A DNA stretch of 64,000 bases, from the NCBI GenBank assembly GCA_965237905.1, contig OZ250172.1:544001-608000 (forward strand). The letters run 5' to 3'. Of this stretch, positions 13,156-19,787 are shown piece by piece. The DNA comes from Nitrospinaceae bacterium (GTDB taxonomy: Bacteria > Nitrospinota > Nitrospinia > Nitrospinales > Nitrospinaceae). A program made the translations under genes and the position numbers. The notes under the pieces were generated by a model. It was given only the letters and a program-made list of their open reading frames with translations. It was not told the origin of the DNA and ran no database searches. Every line of letters begins with the position of its first letter. The stretch's first letter is position 1.

Positions 13156-13458
13156 ATGCCCCACTCGAACACAGAATCCCTAACGCTGTCCCGCTTGGAA
13201 GACCTCAGGGACACCGCACGGAAACTCTCGATTGAAATCCTGTTCGCCGACTTGTCCGACCCGGAAATTCCCACTCAAAGCGGTACCTGTAAAGTGCGCG
13301 GTGAGGATTTGATCGTGGTGGACAAACGATTGTCGGCTCAACGTCAGATCGAGGTGATCCTTAACATCTTCCAACAATTCGATTGGGATGACGTCTATGT
13401 CGCTTCCTGGATTCGGGAGCACCTTGATAATCCCAAACTCACCGGCCTCACTTCATGA
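13156..13458 (+). CDS. hypothetical protein
   Basis: GAGG RBS; overlaps the pepM start (ATGA); SG.C.VRG..I.VDK pattern. Confidence 0.7.
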   Translation: MPHSNTESLTLSRLEDLRDTARKLSIEILFADLSDPEIPTQSGTCKVRGEDLIVVDKRLSAQRQIEVILNIFQQFDWDDVYVASWIREHLDNPKLTGLTS

Positions 13459-15212
13459 CTCTGCTCAGCCAAAATTTACCGGAACAAAGGCGCGGCAAAC
13501 TCAAAGCCTTGCTCACTCAGGGCAAACTCGTCCGCGTCATGGAAGCCCACAACGGTCTCAGCGGCATCGTCGCCGACACCACCTGCGTGGAAGGAAAATC
13601 CGGCGACCAGTCGGTCACCCGTCAGTTCGACGCCCTCTGGGAAAGCAGTCTGACCGATTCCGCTTCCAAGGGTCATCCGGATATTGAAGTGGTCAGCTTC
13701 GATTCCCGCCTGCATACCATTCAGGAAATCCTGACCGTCACGCAAAAACCGATGATCGTTGACGGCGATACCGGCGGCGACCCCAACACCTTCGAGTACA
13801 TGGTGTCCAAAATGGAACGGGCCGGCGTCTCGGCAGTCATCATCGAGGACAAAGTATTTCCCAAACGCAACAGCCTGGAAGCCGGTACCAGTCAGGTTCT
13901 GCAGGAACCCGAAGTGTTCGCGCAGAAAATCAAGCGCGGAAAAAAAGTGCAGGCCACCGATGAGTTCATGATCATCGCCCGCATTGAAAGCCTGATCGCC
14001 GGCACCGGAATGGAAGACGCGCTCGCCCGCGCCCGAATTTATCTGCAGGCGGGGGTAGACGGCATCATGATCCACTCCAAGTCTAAACAGCCGGATGAGA
14101 TCATGGAGTTTGCCGGGAAATACCAGAGTCTCCTCAAAGAACTCGAGTTGAGTAAACCCCTCGTGTGTGTGCCCACCACCTACAACAATATCCTTGAGGA
14201 AGAACTGCAGGCCGCAGGATTCCAGATCATCATTTACGCCAACCATCTGTTACGCTCCGCGTATAAAGCGATGCGCGAAACCGCCAAATCTATTCTGTCG
14301 AACCAACGCTCGCTCGAAGCCGACCCCCTGTGCGCCCCGGTGCGTGAAATATTCGATGCCGTCGGTTTTCTGGACGTTAAGGAAAAAGACCAGCAGGATG
14401 AGACCAATACCAATATCCCGGTCATCATCCCCGCCGCCGGAGAAGCGCCGGCCATCGCCCCTGTTCTCAAAAATACGCCCAAGGCCATGGCCGATATCGC
14501 CGGCAAAACCCTACTGGCCCGGCAGGCCCAAACCCTCAACCAGAACCATCTGACGGATATCACCGTGGTGACAGGTTACGCAGGCGATAAAATGAAGGGC
14601 GAAGGGATTTCCTTCCTGCAAAACAAGGATTACAAAAAGGGCACCGAACTGCACAGCCTGCTCACCGCCCAGGAAAAAATGCACAACGGATTTCTGATGC
14701 TGTACTCCGATATTCTCATTGAAAACCATGTGATCGCCCAATTGCTGGCGTCCCGGGAAGATATTGTGCTGGTGCTGGACAACTCCATTCAATACTTGGA
14801 ATCGGTGGAGGGCAAGGCGACCGATTACGTGATCAGCCGCAACCGGCGGAACCGGAACCGCCGAAGCATCAACTTCGATCACCAGAACACCCTTGCCAAA
14901 ATCGGTAAAAATATTGATCCGGCGTTAGCCACTCACGAGTTCATCGGCCTCGCCAAATTCTCAAAGACCGGAGCCGAACAGTTTCTTCAGACCTATCACG
15001 ACGTGTTGAAAAACCTGGAGGGCAAAGTCCAGGAAGCGGAGGACATTTCCCAGTTCCGCCTTACCGACCTGATTCAGGAGATGGTCGATCGTGGTTTCAA
15101 CGTCCATTACCTGGAAATCCACAAAGGCTGGCTGGAAATCCATTTTCCCAAAGACATCGAACAGGCCAACGAATTGTTCACCGTACAGGAACATCCCTCG
15201 GAAGTTATGTAG
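13455..15212 (+). CDS. pepM: phosphoenolpyruvate mutase fused to C-terminal nucleotidyltransferase (PntC/LicC-like)
   Basis: Diagnostic EDK-X5-NS (EDKVFPKRNS), EAHNGLSG, DGDTGG, ARIES, YANH; C-terminal IPAAG..PKAM..TGY..YSDI..W.EI. Confidence 0.9.
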   Translation: MTLLSQNLPEQRRGKLKALLTQGKLVRVMEAHNGLSGIVADTTCVEGKSGDQSVTRQFDALWESSLTDSASKGHPDIEVVSFDSRLHTIQEILTVTQKPMIVDGDTGGDPNTFEYMVSKMERAGVSAVIIEDKVFPKRNSLEAGTSQVLQEPEVFAQKIKRGKKVQATDEFMIIARIESLIAGTGMEDALARARIYLQAGVDGIMIHSKSKQPDEIMEFAGKYQSLLKELELSKPLVCVPTTYNNILEEELQAAGFQIIIYANHLLRSAYKAMRETAKSILSNQRSLEADPLCAPVREIFDAVGFLDVKEKDQQDETNTNIPVIIPAAGEAPAIAPVLKNTPKAMADIAGKTLLARQAQTLNQNHLTDITVVTGYAGDKMKGEGISFLQNKDYKKGTELHSLLTAQEKMHNGFLMLYSDILIENHVIAQLLASREDIVLVLDNSIQYLESVEGKATDYVISRNRRNRNRRSINFDHQNTLAKIGKNIDPALATHEFIGLAKFSKTGAEQFLQTYHDVLKNLEGKVQEAEDISQFRLTDLIQEMVDRGFNVHYLEIHKGWLEIHFPKDIEQANELFTVQEHPSEVM

Positions 15213-15304
15213 TGTCTCAGTTAGAAATCTAAATGGCTGGAAACGACCCAAAGCGGACGTTCCAATGGCGATGAATGGGGGAGTGGACTAAGCTTCGGGG
15301 TTTG

Positions 15305-15360
15305 ATCAGCGTCACGCCCTCAAAGCATTGCGGGCATCTGTGGGGGATGAAGAGGGCCAT
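15305..15360. repeat. 56-bp direct repeat, copy 1
   Basis: 49/56 identical to 17075..17130. Confidence 0.9.
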
Positions 15361-15624
15361 GAAGCAGATTGTATATTGGCTAGGGAAGGCGAGCAAGCCG
15401 AGAAAACTGTGAAATTCACCCCACCCCTTTACCACTGGAATATCTGTTGCCAGTCCAGCTTCCGGGCATTAACCTGAATAGATAAAGTTAATATAGTAGG
15501 AAATCGGAGGAGAAAGAAACGTTTAGTGCTCCAGCATTCTTAAATACCACACAAAAAAACTTTCCCCCTTCGCACCCCTTTTGATTTCCGGCCTCTCTAC
15601 CTTATTTGGAAAACAGGAAACTCA

Positions 15625-17046
15625 ATGAACGGAGGAATGGAAACTCTCAAGTTAATATACCTTGCCGTAGGACCGGGCATCGCGCTTGCCGTCTATATTT
15701 ACTACTCCGGCCGGTGGAACCCCAAACCCAAAAAACTGGTGTTCAAATGTTTCATTTGGGGAGCTTTGGCCGTATTCCCGACTATGTATTATGAGGAAAC
15801 TTTTGTAAAGGTTCTTGGTTGGGAAGGATCTTTCAATGACACCTGGTGGCAGACTGTTATTTCTGCCTTTTTCGGGATAGCCCTGGCGGAAGAAGTCTGC
15901 AAATTCTTTTTCCTTAAAGAATTCATTTACGAGGACCCGAATTTTAACGATCCTTTTGATGGGATAGTTTACGGGGGTATGATTGGCTGTGGTTTTGCGA
16001 CCATGGAAAATATAATGTATGTATTTCCTTTGGGTTACGAGACAGGGATTTTGAGAATGCTCACCGCTGTTCCCTCCCACGCCTTCGATGGGATCATCCT
16101 GGGCTACTTCATGGGAAAGGCCAAGTTTTCTTCCACTCCCTGGAAACATTTAGCGCGGGGCCTAGTCATAGTAATCATTCTCCACGGGACTTATGACTCC
16201 GTGGCATTTTCCAATTTATCCTGGTCGATTTATCCGCTTTTTGGAATTGTCATTTTTGGAATTTATCTGGCTTTGAAAGTCAAAAGAGAACTTGAAAAAA
16301 CTTCCAAACGGATCGAATTCTCTTCCGGGGAATATTTTTTACCAGAAGATGTAAAGAAAAAAGAGCCGCTGTTATTAAAAGATATCCGGGATAGGCTTTC
16401 GGAGGGGAGTCTAAAACTGGATGATATTTTAGTTCCCGGGAAAAGCGATAGAAGAATTTCCATACGCACCCTTTGGGGTTCGCAAATCGGCTTGGAGGCC
16501 AGAGTTCGGGCAAAAACTCCACCCAGAGTGTTGCCCGCCAAACGGGTTGTAGTTTTCTATGGATTGACTTTCGGACTCTACCTTTATTTTTGGTTCCACA
16601 GGAATTACTGGAATTTCAAGAAATATAAAAACCTGAGACTCAATCCTGACCTTAGGACTCTGGGGTTGTTTGCATTCACCATCATTCCTTTTTTTATTTA
16701 TGGAGCTATTCTGGGAGGGTGGAAAGGACATCGCTTTGATCCCTCCATTGAAATTTCATTCTATGTGATGATGGCGGGTATAGAGGCGGCTTTTTTATTT
16801 TTTTTGTTTCGGATGATCAGGGAAATTTTAAATAAAGTACAAAAAAAATCTTTCCCAATATTATCCATTGTCCTGATGTTTTTTGTCTTGAGTGGAATGA
16901 GAAAGTTCTTGCCTTCGGAGCTTCCTTATTACTGGTGGTTTGAGTTTGCTTTGATTTTGCTTCAGGGAGGGGTTATGGCCATCGCTCAAAAGCACTTGAA
17001 TATTTATTGGGCGCTTGAAAGGGAGAAGCTCGCTGAGTCGACTTAG
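15625..17046 (+). CDS. PrsW family intramembrane protease with C-terminal extension (GYF_2-like segment and extra TM domain)
   Basis: EEVCK, FATMEN, PSHA, HGTYD PrsW motifs; C-terminal TFGLYLYFWF.RN helix bundle. Confidence 0.85.
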   Translation: MNGGMETLKLIYLAVGPGIALAVYIYYSGRWNPKPKKLVFKCFIWGALAVFPTMYYEETFVKVLGWEGSFNDTWWQTVISAFFGIALAEEVCKFFFLKEFIYEDPNFNDPFDGIVYGGMIGCGFATMENIMYVFPLGYETGILRMLTAVPSHAFDGIILGYFMGKAKFSSTPWKHLARGLVIVIILHGTYDSVAFSNLSWSIYPLFGIVIFGIYLALKVKRELEKTSKRIEFSSGEYFLPEDVKKKEPLLLKDIRDRLSEGSLKLDDILVPGKSDRRISIRTLWGSQIGLEARVRAKTPPRVLPAKRVVVFYGLTFGLYLYFWFHRNYWNFKKYKNLRLNPDLRTLGLFAFTIIPFFIYGAILGGWKGHRFDPSIEISFYVMMAGIEAAFLFFLFRMIREILNKVQKKSFPILSIVLMFFVLSGMRKFLPSELPYYWWFEFALILLQGGVMAIAQKHLNIYWALEREKLAEST

Positions 17047-17074
17047 ATATCTTGTTTGATTATGCTGTGGCTGT

Positions 17075-17130
17075 ATCAGCGTCACGCTCGCAAAGCATTT
17101 CGGGCATCGACTGGGGATGAAGAGGGCCAT
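17075..17130. repeat. 56-bp direct repeat, copy 2
   Basis: 49/56 identical to 15305..15360. Confidence 0.9.
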
Positions 17131-17290
17131 AGAAGACATCCAAGGTTTTAGGTCCAAATCCTAACATAAACTCTGGATCCGTTTTCGGAGGGCAGGTCAC
17201 CAACCCCTTGCACGGCAGGTTGCAGGACTGCCAATTTCAAAATCGGTTTTCAGGTATTATCGCCCCAAAAGAGTCTGACGGCGGCCGAGT

Positions 17291-17680
17291 TTATTTCATC
17301 TTTTCGCCTTCTTTCATCATGGTGTCCTTAGGCATGGTCCCTTCTTTATCCATCTTTTCGCCTTCTTTCATCATGGTGTCTTTAGGCATGGTCCCTTCTT
17401 TATCCATCTTTTCGCCTTCTTTCATCATGGTGTCCTTAGGCATGGTCCCTTCTTTATCCATCTTTTCGCCTTCTTTCATCATGGTGTCTTTAGGCATGGT
17501 CCCTTCTTTATCCATCTTTTCGCCTTCTTTCATCATGGTGTCTTTAGGCATGGTCCCTTCTTTATCCATCTTTTCGCCTTCTTTCATCATGGTGTCCTCG
17601 GTACAGGCCACACCCGACAACATCACTAACAAGGAAAGAATGACCAAATAAAAAGATTTGTTTTTAAGCATCGTTTTCAT
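17291..17680 (-). CDS. Met/Lys-rich tandem-repeat lipoprotein (MXKDX-like)
   Basis: Signal peptide with lipobox GVAC; 5 full plus 1 partial copies of DTMMKEGEKMDKEGTMPK; GGGGGA RBS. Confidence 0.85.
   Translation of the reverse strand: MKTMLKNKSFYLVILSLLVMLSGVACTEDTMMKEGEKMDKEGTMPKDTMMKEGEKMDKEGTMPKDTMMKEGEKMDKEGTMPKDTMMKEGEKMDKEGTMPKDTMMKEGEKMDKEGTMPKDTMMKEGEKMK
17294..17596. repeat. 54-bp coding tandem repeat (~5.6 copies)
   Basis: Near-identical 54-nt units, differing at a synonymous C/T site. Confidence 0.95.
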
Positions 17681-17749
17681 GATTGATCCCCCTATAGATT
17701 ATGTGGATTATTGGGCTAGCCCATTTTCAAAGATAGGTCTCAATGCCTG

Positions 17750-17834
17750 TGACCTGCCCCCGTAAGTTGTACCACATGTTAAGTTAGAGTTTGTTCCTTA
17801 GGTTTGACGCTCCGGGGCCGGAGGACGATAACCC
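17750..17834 (-). mobile_element. IS3-family right-end remnant
   Basis: Minus strand encodes GYRPPAPE (IS3 transposase C-terminus) followed by the IR-like ...GTGGTACAACTTACGGGGGCAGGTCA. Confidence 0.7.
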
Positions 17835-18011
17835 TTGAAAAATCGACGGCTACAAATGACCGAAATTTGAGTGGAGAATGGGTCAAAATGAATAGTGCAG
17901 GTATTTCGCTGCGCTTCATAGCGGCAGGTAAGCTTGGTCGTTAATGTCCGCTTATGGCCGTTCGGAGACATTCGATTTTAAACTGAGACACTCCTCGGAA
18001 ATTTCCACGCA

Positions 18012-18040
18012 TTGATTTATACTTCATATTTCTGCATAAT
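18012..18040 (+). promoter_or_regulatory. sigma70-type promoter for proS (TTGATT-17-CATAAT)
   Basis: 17-bp spacing and position upstream of ATG 18078. Confidence 0.5.
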
Positions 18041-18077: not shown

Positions 18078-19787
18078 ATGTACTATTCGAAACTGTTCAT
18101 ACCCACACTGAAACAATCACCCACCGACGCCGAAGTCGTCAGCCACAAGCTGATGGTGCGTGCCGGGATGATCCGGCAATTGGCCGCGGGTATTTATTCC
18201 ATCCTGCCCCTCGGTCTGCGCGTGCTGAAAAAAGTAGAGCAGATCATTCGCGAGGAGATGAACCGCATTGGCGGTCAGGAAGTGTTCCTGCCCAGCATCC
18301 AGCCTGCCGAACTGTGGCAGGAAAGCGGACGATGGGAACTGTACGGCAAAGAGCTCATGCGGTTCAAGGACCGCCACGACCGCGAGTTCTGCTACGGACC
18401 CACGCATGAAGAAGTCATCACCGATATCATCCGCCGCGAGATCAAGTCCTACCGGCAGCTGCCCTTGCTCACTTACCAGATTCAAACCAAGTTTCGGGAT
18501 GAAGTGCGGCCCCGCTTTGGCGTCATGCGCGGACGCGAATTCACGATGAAAGACGCTTACAGTTTTCATGCCGACGAAGCCAGCGTTCAAGACATGTACG
18601 AAAATATGAAGCAGGCCTACTCCAACACCTTCCGGCGGTGCGGGTTGGACTTCAAAATGGTGGAAGCCGACAGCGGCACCATCGGCGGCAGTTTTTCACA
18701 CGAGTTCATGGTGCTGGCCGATTCGGGAGAAGACGCCGTCGCGTTCTGCGACGCCTGCGACTACGCGTCCAACGTGGAAAAGGCCGCTGCACGCATACCG
18801 GACCCGGTCGATCCACCCAAAGAGATAGAAGAATTGAAAAAAATCCCGACTCCCGGACAAAAAACGGTGGAGGAGGTGGCGAAATTCCTCAAAATCTCTC
18901 CCCGGCAAATTGTCAAAACCCTCATCATGGAGAATGAGAACGGACTGGTGGCGGGTCTGGTGCGGGGTGACCGGCAACTCAACCCCATCAAACTCAAAAA
19001 CCTGATCGGATGCGACTGGCTCCACGCCGCCGACGAATCCCTGATCGCTTCCAAAACAAAAATTCCCTGCGGCTTCATCGGACCGGTGAAACTGGACATG
19101 AAGGTCTATGCCGACCACGAAGTCGCCGTCATGCACAATTTCGTGACCGGCGCCAACAGCAAGGACGCCCACTACACCGGCGTGCAATTCGAACGGGATA
19201 TCAAAGTCGCGCAGGTGGGCGACCTGCATGAAGTACAGGAAGGCGACCCCTGCCCCAAATGCGACAGCGGCCGCTACCAGGTAAAACGCGGAATCGAGGT
19301 GGGGCATATATTCATTCTGGGCACCAAATACAGCTCCGCCATGAAAGCGCATTATCTGGACGAGCATGGCAAGGAAAACCCGATGATCATGGGATGCTAT
19401 GGCATCGGCGTGGGCCGCACCGCCGCCGCCGCCATCGAACAGAATCACGATGACAAAGGCATCATCTGGCCCGTCCCTCTCGCACCCTTTGAGGCCGTGG
19501 TCATTCCGGTCAAATTTGAAGAGGACAGCCAGCGCATGGTCTGCGAGGAGGCTTACAAAATCCTGGGTGACCTGGGCATAGAAACCTTGTTGGACGACCG
19601 CCCGGAACGGCTGGGAGTCAAATTCAAGGACGCCGAACTCTTGGGAATCCCTCTCCAGATCATTATCGGCCCGAAAAATCTGGAAAACGGCCAAATTGAG
19701 ATAAAGTCAAGAAAAACGGGTACTTCCGAGCTTATCGACTTCCCCGTCGGCCTCCAGGACATTCCCAATCGGCTCAAAAACTCCTGA
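18078..19787 (+). CDS. proS: proline--tRNA ligase (with editing domain)
   Basis: SHKLMVRAG, GPTHEE, KFRDEVRPRFG, GIEVGHIF, MGCYGIGVGR. Confidence 0.97.
   Translation: MYYSKLFIPTLKQSPTDAEVVSHKLMVRAGMIRQLAAGIYSILPLGLRVLKKVEQIIREEMNRIGGQEVFLPSIQPAELWQESGRWELYGKELMRFKDRHDREFCYGPTHEEVITDIIRREIKSYRQLPLLTYQIQTKFRDEVRPRFGVMRGREFTMKDAYSFHADEASVQDMYENMKQAYSNTFRRCGLDFKMVEADSGTIGGSFSHEFMVLADSGEDAVAFCDACDYASNVEKAAARIPDPVDPPKEIEELKKIPTPGQKTVEEVAKFLKISPRQIVKTLIMENENGLVAGLVRGDRQLNPIKLKNLIGCDWLHAADESLIASKTKIPCGFIGPVKLDMKVYADHEVAVMHNFVTGANSKDAHYTGVQFERDIKVAQVGDLHEVQEGDPCPKCDSGRYQVKRGIEVGHIFILGTKYSSAMKAHYLDEHGKENPMIMGCYGIGVGRTAAAAIEQNHDDKGIIWPVPLAPFEAVVIPVKFEEDSQRMVCEEAYKILGDLGIETLLDDRPERLGVKFKDAELLGIPLQIIIGPKNLENGQIEIKSRKTGTSELIDFPVGLQDIPNRLKNS

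Follow-up and report, generated by a model that had tools for sequence, protein, structure and literature searches.

Fixed IS1-like ends around changing cargo at the 3′ end of pepM in a Nitrospinaceae bacterium

Introduction

In phage P2, inverted repeats reportedly surround the variable Z/fun locus, for which Nilsson, Karlsson and Haggard-Ljungquist (2004) are said to have proposed site-specific recombination. The pdif modules of Acinetobacter plasmids (XerC/XerD) consist of genes bounded by simple sites, which are inverted and have 6-bp cores. Cassettes arrayed at a fixed platform are found in integrons and in integrase-less attC clusters. Here we describe an element inserted in the 3′ end of pepM in a Nitrospinaceae bacterium, within a window of 64,000 nucleotides (contig OZ250172.1, positions 544,001 to 608,000). 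Its ends consist of two layers, an IS1-like transposon repeat outside and a palindromic site inside, and in relatives the ends stay while the cargo changes. We consider it rather probable that this transposase-less IS1-like shell is a chromosomal landing pad, with cargo likely exchanged by a small tyrosine recombinase acting in trans.

Mobile insertion cassettes (MICs) and transporter insertion sequences (ISs) are defined in passages of PMC3129680. The closing passages of a survey of P2/P4 hotspots (2026) leave the recombination processes still to be elucidated (PMC13586616), and the passages of PMC13552941 make no mention of such sites.

Coordinates without a prefix are window positions. The host genome (G000) is a single contig of 3.09 Mb; other genomes, contigs, and loci are cited by G, C, and L numbers.

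Two layers in each end

The target gene pepM (13455–15212, plus strand; Pfam PF13714 and PF12804) encodes a phosphoenolpyruvate mutase with a nucleoside triphosphate (NTP)-transferase, and proS (18078–19787, plus strand; PF00587, PF04073, and PF03129) forms the downstream flank. Each 50-bp end of the element combines an outer 21-bp transposon repeat and an inner 30-bp 12-6-12 site. On the left, the IS1-like terminal inverted repeat (15208–15228, plus strand; 19/21 identical to the repeat of transposase-bearing elements) is followed by an L-type site at 15232–15261 (plus strand), with outer arm 15232–15243, core CGACCC at 15244–15249, and inner arm 15250–15261, the conserved arm, which points to the cargo. 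On the right, an R-type site at 17943–17972 (minus strand; inner arm 17943–17954, core 17955–17960, outer arm 17961–17972) has the core CGGCCA on the minus strand, and the terminal inverted repeat at 17976–17996 (minus strand) has a decayed tip, without which it is 17/18 identical to the parent repeat. A preliminary description of this DNA had given imperfect inverted repeats at 15211–15261 and 17943–17992, and alignment confirms the 39/51 identical positions; the inner sites had been taken there as part of one repeat.

With the IS1-like repeat used as a ruler, the element extends from 15208 to 17996 and the target duplication lies at 15200–15207 (plus strand, left copy, GGAAGTTA) and 17997–18004 (plus strand, right copy, GGAAATTT; 6/8 identical to the left copy). 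The target is duplicated over 8 bp and not as the 11-bp CCTCGGAA(G/A)TT; the additional letters CCTC that match on the right arose as the tip of the repeat drifted, and relatives differ at those letters. The insertion swaps the last pepM codons, ISTH-stop becoming VM-stop, and the displaced original 3′ end (..EISTH-stop) lies at 17997–18015 (plus strand). Joining the flanks gives an in-frame pepM ending ..HPSEISTH-stop. An empty pepM–proS site with that same ending, which the preliminary description had suggested looking for in relatives, is present in one of them (G001:C35), with a single copy of the target, GGAAATTT.

The ends recur within the 3.09-Mb genome: the outer 12-mer is found exactly three times and an end profile gives 13 copies at E < 0.01 (in the reversed genome, as a control, there is one match with E 0.78). 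Between the ends there is neither recombinase nor transposase, as had been noted, and only two proteins are encoded, a PrsW-family protease of 473 aa and a repeat lipoprotein of 129 aa. The interior had been called AT-rich; its GC content (44%) is lower than in pepM (54%), in proS (56%), and genome-wide (50%), by a moderate amount only.

Ends that stay and cargo that changes

The pepM site was compared at 12 loci from relatives (G003, G006, and G007, with no flank match listed, were left out). Besides the empty allele, the ends are missing there in four genomes, which belong to other genera. In five genomes of the same genus (G008, G005, G002, G004, and G010), the two ends are located at the identical base, with unrelated cargo and with 2871, 2073, 6741, 2032, and 1743 bp between the ends, respectively. 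In two cases (G009 and G001:C16) one end is visible before the contig stops. The cargo of these relatives comprises, by locus, a formate/nitrite transporter with a nitrite/sulfite reductase; a methyltransferase with a CDP-alcohol transferase; a band-7 protein, citrate and sulfate transporters, and a GAF protein; SelO; and a Na/H exchanger. None resembles the window cargo except for one 34-bp match, and a 74-bp stretch is all that is common among the pepM-site cargos. When the six left ends are aligned, conservation stops at the final base of the repeat. The target duplications of the relatives at this site are 6–7/8 identical.

Two further loci, after tgt and at 242 kb, likewise show different cargo at kept ends, each with its own 8-bp duplication; at such other loci the duplication is 7/8 identical in G002 and G007. 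The two-layer anatomy and the turnover of the cargo are firm.

In G008 (C16, L023 1791–4263) the cargo consists of the formate/nitrite transporter and a ferredoxin nitrite/sulfite reductase, and is a nitrogen-assimilation module in what is likely a nitrite oxidiser. The 242-kb locus of the host genome (G000:C1 242025–248245, L033) is a tandem stack of fused-end units that share one 8-bp target, with partly duplicated cargo (ankyrin, cupin, and anthrone-oxygenase genes and unknown genes); its tandem end–8 bp–end junctions are at 246.5 and 248.2 kb.

The outer layer is an IS1-like terminal repeat

A 20-mer of the outer repeat occurs in 100 viral-contig stretches (L041–L140), often as inverted pairs 0.4–4.3 kb apart. 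Among 35 paired rows (two of which are one element read from the other strand), the target duplication is exact over 8 bp in 25, and at least 7/8 identical in 27. Of the enclosed open reading frames (ORFs), 103/166 were scanned, duplicates being dropped, and a protein of ~295 aa matching the IS1 transposase model PF03400 is encoded at 18 of the 32 paired loci scanned. Aligned transposases (n = 16) are 52–64% identical to the first member, and NF033558 is the best match of all 16, the scores staying below its cut-off (the first member reaches 69 of 100 bits). The outer layer of 21 bp is therefore an IS1-like DDE terminal repeat, of a kind that comes with 8-bp duplications, and the statement that the element matches no nameable IS class is not supported.

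In this viral-contig family the 21-bp terminal repeat is almost invariant and the transposase highly conserved. The passengers next to the transposases are defence-like (helix-turn-helix (HTH)/M78, Panacea, P63C, Abi, NYN, and ParE), and the family includes transposase-less members that carry cargo. The family may be the ISMhu11 group; a literature search gave no paper naming that group. An assignment to IS1595 was dropped for a weaker match than to IS1. The ends had also been considered as those of GInts, strand-biased circularizing elements (SEs), or recombinase-in-trio (RIT) elements, a reading dropped because the paired repeats enclose IS1-like transposases. A PDB search with the transposase profile gave nothing, and a plasmid blastn search with the right end gave no match. 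Among 61 related genomes, five have a match to the transposase family at all, strong in three genomes of the same order, with the outer repeat or a variant alongside.

The element shares its repeats with transposase-bearing ISs, has a duplication of the parent's length, and carries passengers without a transposase, as a MIC does. The transposase profile matches nothing in G000 or in 10 same-genus genomes, so that a cognate enzyme for current mobility was not found there. These results bear out the earlier proposal of a non-autonomous element that carries cargo and depends on enzymes in trans. That it was mobilised as a unit is true of the past only: the duplications have decayed, the same positions are occupied genus-wide, and the inner cargo varies. 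Transposition would have stopped, since ends and duplications are decayed and the transposase is missing.

Alternatively, each copy could be an independent non-autonomous transposon (a MIC) that arrived together with its particular cargo, the entire unit being moved by a transposase of the IS1-like kind in trans. The genuine IS1-like ends with 8-bp duplications, the tandem junctions of the 242-kb stack, the transposase-less cargo carriers of the viral contigs, and the position of the empty allele among occupied genomes (see below) agree with it. It would require at least six insertions at one base, yet no target sequence is common to the duplications in the parent family; the six occupied sites are thus better read as one old insertion. 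The decay of the ends and duplications and the lack of a cognate transposase in the genomes just named also speak against independent transpositions, which leave unexplained the breakpoints at the inner cores and the occurrence of the same cassette without terminal repeats (next section). We regard this alternative as quite unlikely.

The inner layer is a pair of 12-6-12 sites

The site motif is a 12-6-12 imperfect palindrome in which the arm on the cargo side is conserved, and it occurs with two cores, CGACCC (L) and CGGCCA (R). Neighboring sites that face inward are one L and one R in 39/43 pairs (p 3e-8, ignoring kinship). The inner 30 bp are found without the transposon repeat in 31/61 related genomes (reversed-pattern control, 0), and the exact pattern of fused ends, site plus transposon repeat, in three stretches from two records of the genome collection. 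Cassettes form arrays in which they are joined by a 56-bp L–R junction (for example, L198:1403–1458), with a linker of 20 nt in 26/31 metagenome junctions. This junction folds as a long hairpin, and the fused ends of the window do not. At 74 sites that are neither fused nor in junctions, conservation fades ~12 bp outside the core.

The key case is a cassette of ~640 bp that lies between fused ends in G007:C50 and is 99.5% identical to positions 2670396–2671042 of G000. Private changes are shared in both inner arms and the sequences diverge from the first base beyond each core, the two contexts having merely the 18-bp inner halves in common. In this one case the inner arms travel with the cargo and the outer arms remain with the platform.

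The turnover could also proceed with no site-specific enzyme, the ends being transposon fossils between which cargo is replaced by short-homology or illegitimate recombination. We hold this to be very unlikely: outside fused copies conservation ends ~12 bp on either side of the core, the G007/G000 exchange had just the 18-bp inner halves to use, and site polarity is fixed beside a recombinase gene (below). In its favor are the lack of an enzyme in the genome, the wealth of other mobile-element ends in the region, and the P2 sites, which sit inside longer conserved flanks.

Side observations concern the movement and loss of sites. In G002 (C5, L040 7480–7529), a left end lies within another cassette array together with part of the 3′ flank of pepM, so that ends plus host flank have moved between loci; likewise, the flank of an end from the G002 array is present at position 1360320 of G000. 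At four loci (L295, L314, L322, and L323), at least three full palindromic sites with differing cores stand in a row, ~20 nt apart, and are perhaps remnants of emptied cassette arrays.

The same sites in P2-like phages

Exact full-palindrome patterns gave no match in viral contigs, and an 18-mer gave two matches within a gene that are probably due to chance. The core-free palindrome pattern is found in 79 viral stretches (34 distinct contexts), the leading core being GTGCCA (16). In P2-like phages, the palindrome sits 5′ of the tail sheath gene. The fun(Z) gene of P2 is bounded by two sites, one with GTGCCA that faces inward and one with GAGCGA, and their arms are as in the window. The remaining seven loci examined all have sites, and six have both cores, inward-facing sites with unlike cores thus enclosing the variable cassettes of other P2-like phages too; the sites of P2 lie within longer conserved flanks. 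The window sites thus show the Z/fun type of arrangement: a 12-6-12 palindrome, a conserved cargo-side arm, and unlike inverted cores. An invertase adjoining a site in L303 was set aside as part of a P2-like tail region.

A candidate enzyme

At a Pantoea plasmid locus, an L-type site lies upstream (35 bp) and an R-type site downstream (15 bp) of the gene of a 200-aa tyrosine recombinase. The two sites face outward and the gene thus occupies the place of the 20-nt linker. The protein is a member of PF00589 (the catalytic-type residues R, K, H-x-x-R, H, and Y are conserved in nine aligned rows), and its closest solved structures in the PDB are distant Xer enzymes. Homologues were found in 405 plasmid records and at 60 viral loci. 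An R-type site lies at most 80 nt downstream of the gene at 28/34 distinct loci (control windows, 89/1144), and an L-type site at most 120 nt upstream at 21/27 (control windows, 129/1144); the opposite site types occur at four and two loci. With a stricter arm-only pattern, the counts are 21/37 (R) and 12/27 (L), against 42/810 in the control.

The cores change along with the recombinase clade. Enterobacterial recombinase genes go with GAGCGA/GTGCCA, and most others with CGACCC/CGGCCA, the cores of the window, or near variants. In a genome of the same order (G073:C284), a complete recombinase gene lies between CGACCC and CGGCCA. In G019 the gene is followed by a downstream CGGCCA site, and G043 has a fragment; a 30% match in G070 was set aside. 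In the host genome, positions 2820896–2820957, adjoining an L site, are 81% identical to the upstream flank of a small-recombinase gene, and are likely the footprint of such a gene, judging from this resemblance. The small tyrosine recombinase may act on the sites, the link being one of adjacency and not firm.

It is unlikely, in our judgment, that the cores are true crossover points at which another enzyme swaps the cargo, with the small recombinase as a passenger or self-moving unit. This enzyme could be a host function or a serine recombinase, for which a 12-2-12 geometry fits the central 26 bp; the large serine recombinase of G000 is in an island that holds sites too, and the small recombinase is absent from the searched family while the sites are common. 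Against this reading, the cores are asymmetric over 6 bp and vary together with the recombinase clade. None of 29 resolvase loci has a site at two or fewer mismatches, and the short serine recombinases of G001, G046, and G070 (three loci) have no site nearby and no viral relatives. A host function of the Xer type is opposed by the dif-like site of G000, at 124580 near the skew maximum, which is canonical and unlike the motif.

The 56-bp junction was also considered as the attP of a large serine integrase split at its central AT; the central dinucleotide matches at both ends in 10/43 pairs, and this reading was rejected; PF07508 is present in 9/61 genomes, with no close site at those 11 loci. 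Among the five PF00589 matches of G000 (by inspection, two XerC/XerD-like and two phage-type, besides one protein of 202 aa) there is no integron integrase, the 202-aa protein being far under the cut-off of the integron model. The four-gene recombinase operon of GInts and SEs has no counterpart in the cargo of six copies.

An island in a split comM of the host genome (G000:C1, about 2652000–2672400; L037 and L182) contains a large serine recombinase, a 202-aa tyrosine recombinase, a DNA methylase, IrrE/HTH, and a patatin and nucleotidyltransferase pair like that of cyclic-oligonucleotide-based anti-phage signaling systems (CBASS).

A possible course of exchange

The following steps would account for the locus. 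An IS1-like element would have captured an L–cargo–R cassette and lost its transposase. In the ancestral lineage of the genus, the shell would then have been copied in trans to three or more loci, probably five; copying in trans is suggested because the fused ends share outer arms and have separate 8-bp duplications. The cargo would be replaced through crossing-over of L with L and of R with R, in a single step or two, and the outer arms and terminal repeats would be left in place; deletion or inversion by L-by-R events would be prevented because the cores are unlike. The small tyrosine recombinase would be the enzyme and would be present only transiently, carried in on phages, plasmids, or islands.

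Several results weigh against this course. The proS tree nests the empty G001 allele among occupied genomes (support 91/95), so that a single ancestral insertion requires that the element was later lost or the allele replaced; the pepM tree gives no resolution. Neither G000 nor the other 20 genomes of its family yielded the small recombinase (best match at most 33% identity), and a scan of the phylum matched in 4/120 genomes, with a full-length close homologue in only two. The adjacency patterns are loose and many of the loci are near-identical enterobacterial copies; among homologues less than 70% identical to the query, the counts are 9/12 and 6/12, of which a few are probably due to chance. 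In the neighborhood of most site arrays there is no recombinase (one phage-type integrase in 127 ORFs, 0/80, and 3/31 viral loci). Exact breakpoints were obtained for one cassette only, and they do not resolve the position of the crossover within the core. Contigs of two runs of one sample contain no circle and no empty junction. The X18/X19 contigs have one joint, 15259–17060, with unknown intervening letters, as would be expected from a different copy of the end in the genome; the sediment runs (X1, X2, X3, and X5) were too fragmented to bridge the site.

G001 has, besides its empty pepM–proS junction (L021, C35), a second, divergent pepM with a left end (L022, C16); the two alleles are perhaps due to duplication, strain mixture, or recent allele replacement.

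Other features of the element and its surroundings

The PrsW-family intramembrane protease is encoded at 15625–17046 (plus strand; PF13367, E 9e-35) and has an additional C-terminal membrane region; the PrsW unit is present at different loci in G004, G006, G007, and G014. The gene is bounded by a 56-bp direct repeat, copy 1 at 15305–15360 and copy 2 at 17075–17130 (both plus strand; 88% identical), which is plentiful in related genomes. The repeat pair is possibly a second cassette or a family of MITEs (miniature transposable elements with inverted repeats). Copy 2 opens a 140-bp dispersed repeat, the tip of which, at about 17201, is presumably IS3-like. In sediment runs, the summed depth is very high over this repeat (15305–15360; 17060–17201), of which relatives have many copies.

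The predicted lipoprotein of 129 aa (17291–17680, minus strand) is made of 18-aa (54-bp) repeats with a weak MXKDX-pentapeptide match. Positions 17750–17905 (plus strand), with many copies in relatives and sediment runs, form a dispersed end or miniature element that we assume, from its terminal letters, to be IS3-like. The stretch 17902–17945, which abuts the R site, resembles what we take to be the 3′ half of an integron attC site; upstream of 17902, four sediment runs have an attC-like 5′ half, and integron-derived pieces also adjoin sites at 1361165 and 2669986–2671035 of G000. In all relatives examined, pepM is fused to the NTP-transferase domain and directly 5′ of proS, and no further phosphonate genes were seen adjoining pepM. 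An Rfam scan gave two matches only (E 2.7 and 4.3), both far under cut-off, and a promoter/terminator scan was at chance level.

Comparison with known systems

The mechanism of single-gene swapping at fixed hotspots without a resident transposase is an open question. This locus offers defined sites, a candidate enzyme with matching cores in the same order, and one mapped exchange, which makes it a question for a plasmid assay. There is perhaps an even chance that a natural two-site cassette exchange by a 200-residue tyrosine recombinase extends from P2 Z/fun to the chromosomes of marine nitrifiers; in this genus an IS1-like transposon would have acquired a site pair and seeded permanent pads, and a visiting enzyme would trade metabolic genes between species. 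The genes so traded would be a nitrite reductase with a transporter, antiporters, and osmolyte uptake. Such exchange would be a route of gene capture distinct from integrons and pdif modules, would account for metabolic differences between strains of an abundant marine group, and would make the 200-aa recombinase, with naturally orthogonal site pairs, a compact cassette-exchange tool. In the literature searched, which covered few subscription papers, there is no description of the site pair with the small recombinase or of the fused ends. What the window adds is the probable transposon-seeded landing pad, the mapped breakpoints, and a core pair from outside the enterobacteria, together with a candidate enzyme of its own.

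GInts and strand-biased circularizing elements also have tyrosine recombinases, a 6-nt overlap, insertion at gene ends, and variable cargo, but they carry a four-gene operon and move whole, according to passages of PMC5385486 and PMC10214605; neither trait was seen in the window element. A MIC has IS ends, an 8-bp duplication, passenger genes, and no transposase, like the window element, the parent family of which is characterized by a single-ORF DDE transposase, nearest to IS1. The MIC, however, moves with its cargo, whereas here the shell stays and the cargo is swapped at the inner site pair.

As in integrons, cassettes of one or two genes form arrays on a fixed platform, and the 56-bp junction forms a hairpin; unlike in integrons, each cassette has two unlike, inverted sites, and no integron integrase was found in G000. 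The pdif modules share with the window cassettes inverted simple sites, 6-bp cores, and a module without an enzyme. The arms in the window are unlike the host dif, both are versions of one motif, and the candidate enzyme is a mobile 200-aa recombinase and not the host Xer.

The P2 Z/fun locus has the same arms and 6-bp core layout, and in both cases the cargo is lower in GC, highly variable, and without an enzyme inside. The cores differ (CGACCC/CGGCCA in the window, GAGCGA/GTGCCA in the sequence of P2). Unlike those of P2, the window sites are chromosomal, in a Nitrospina-related bacterium, and are fused to IS1-like terminal repeats.

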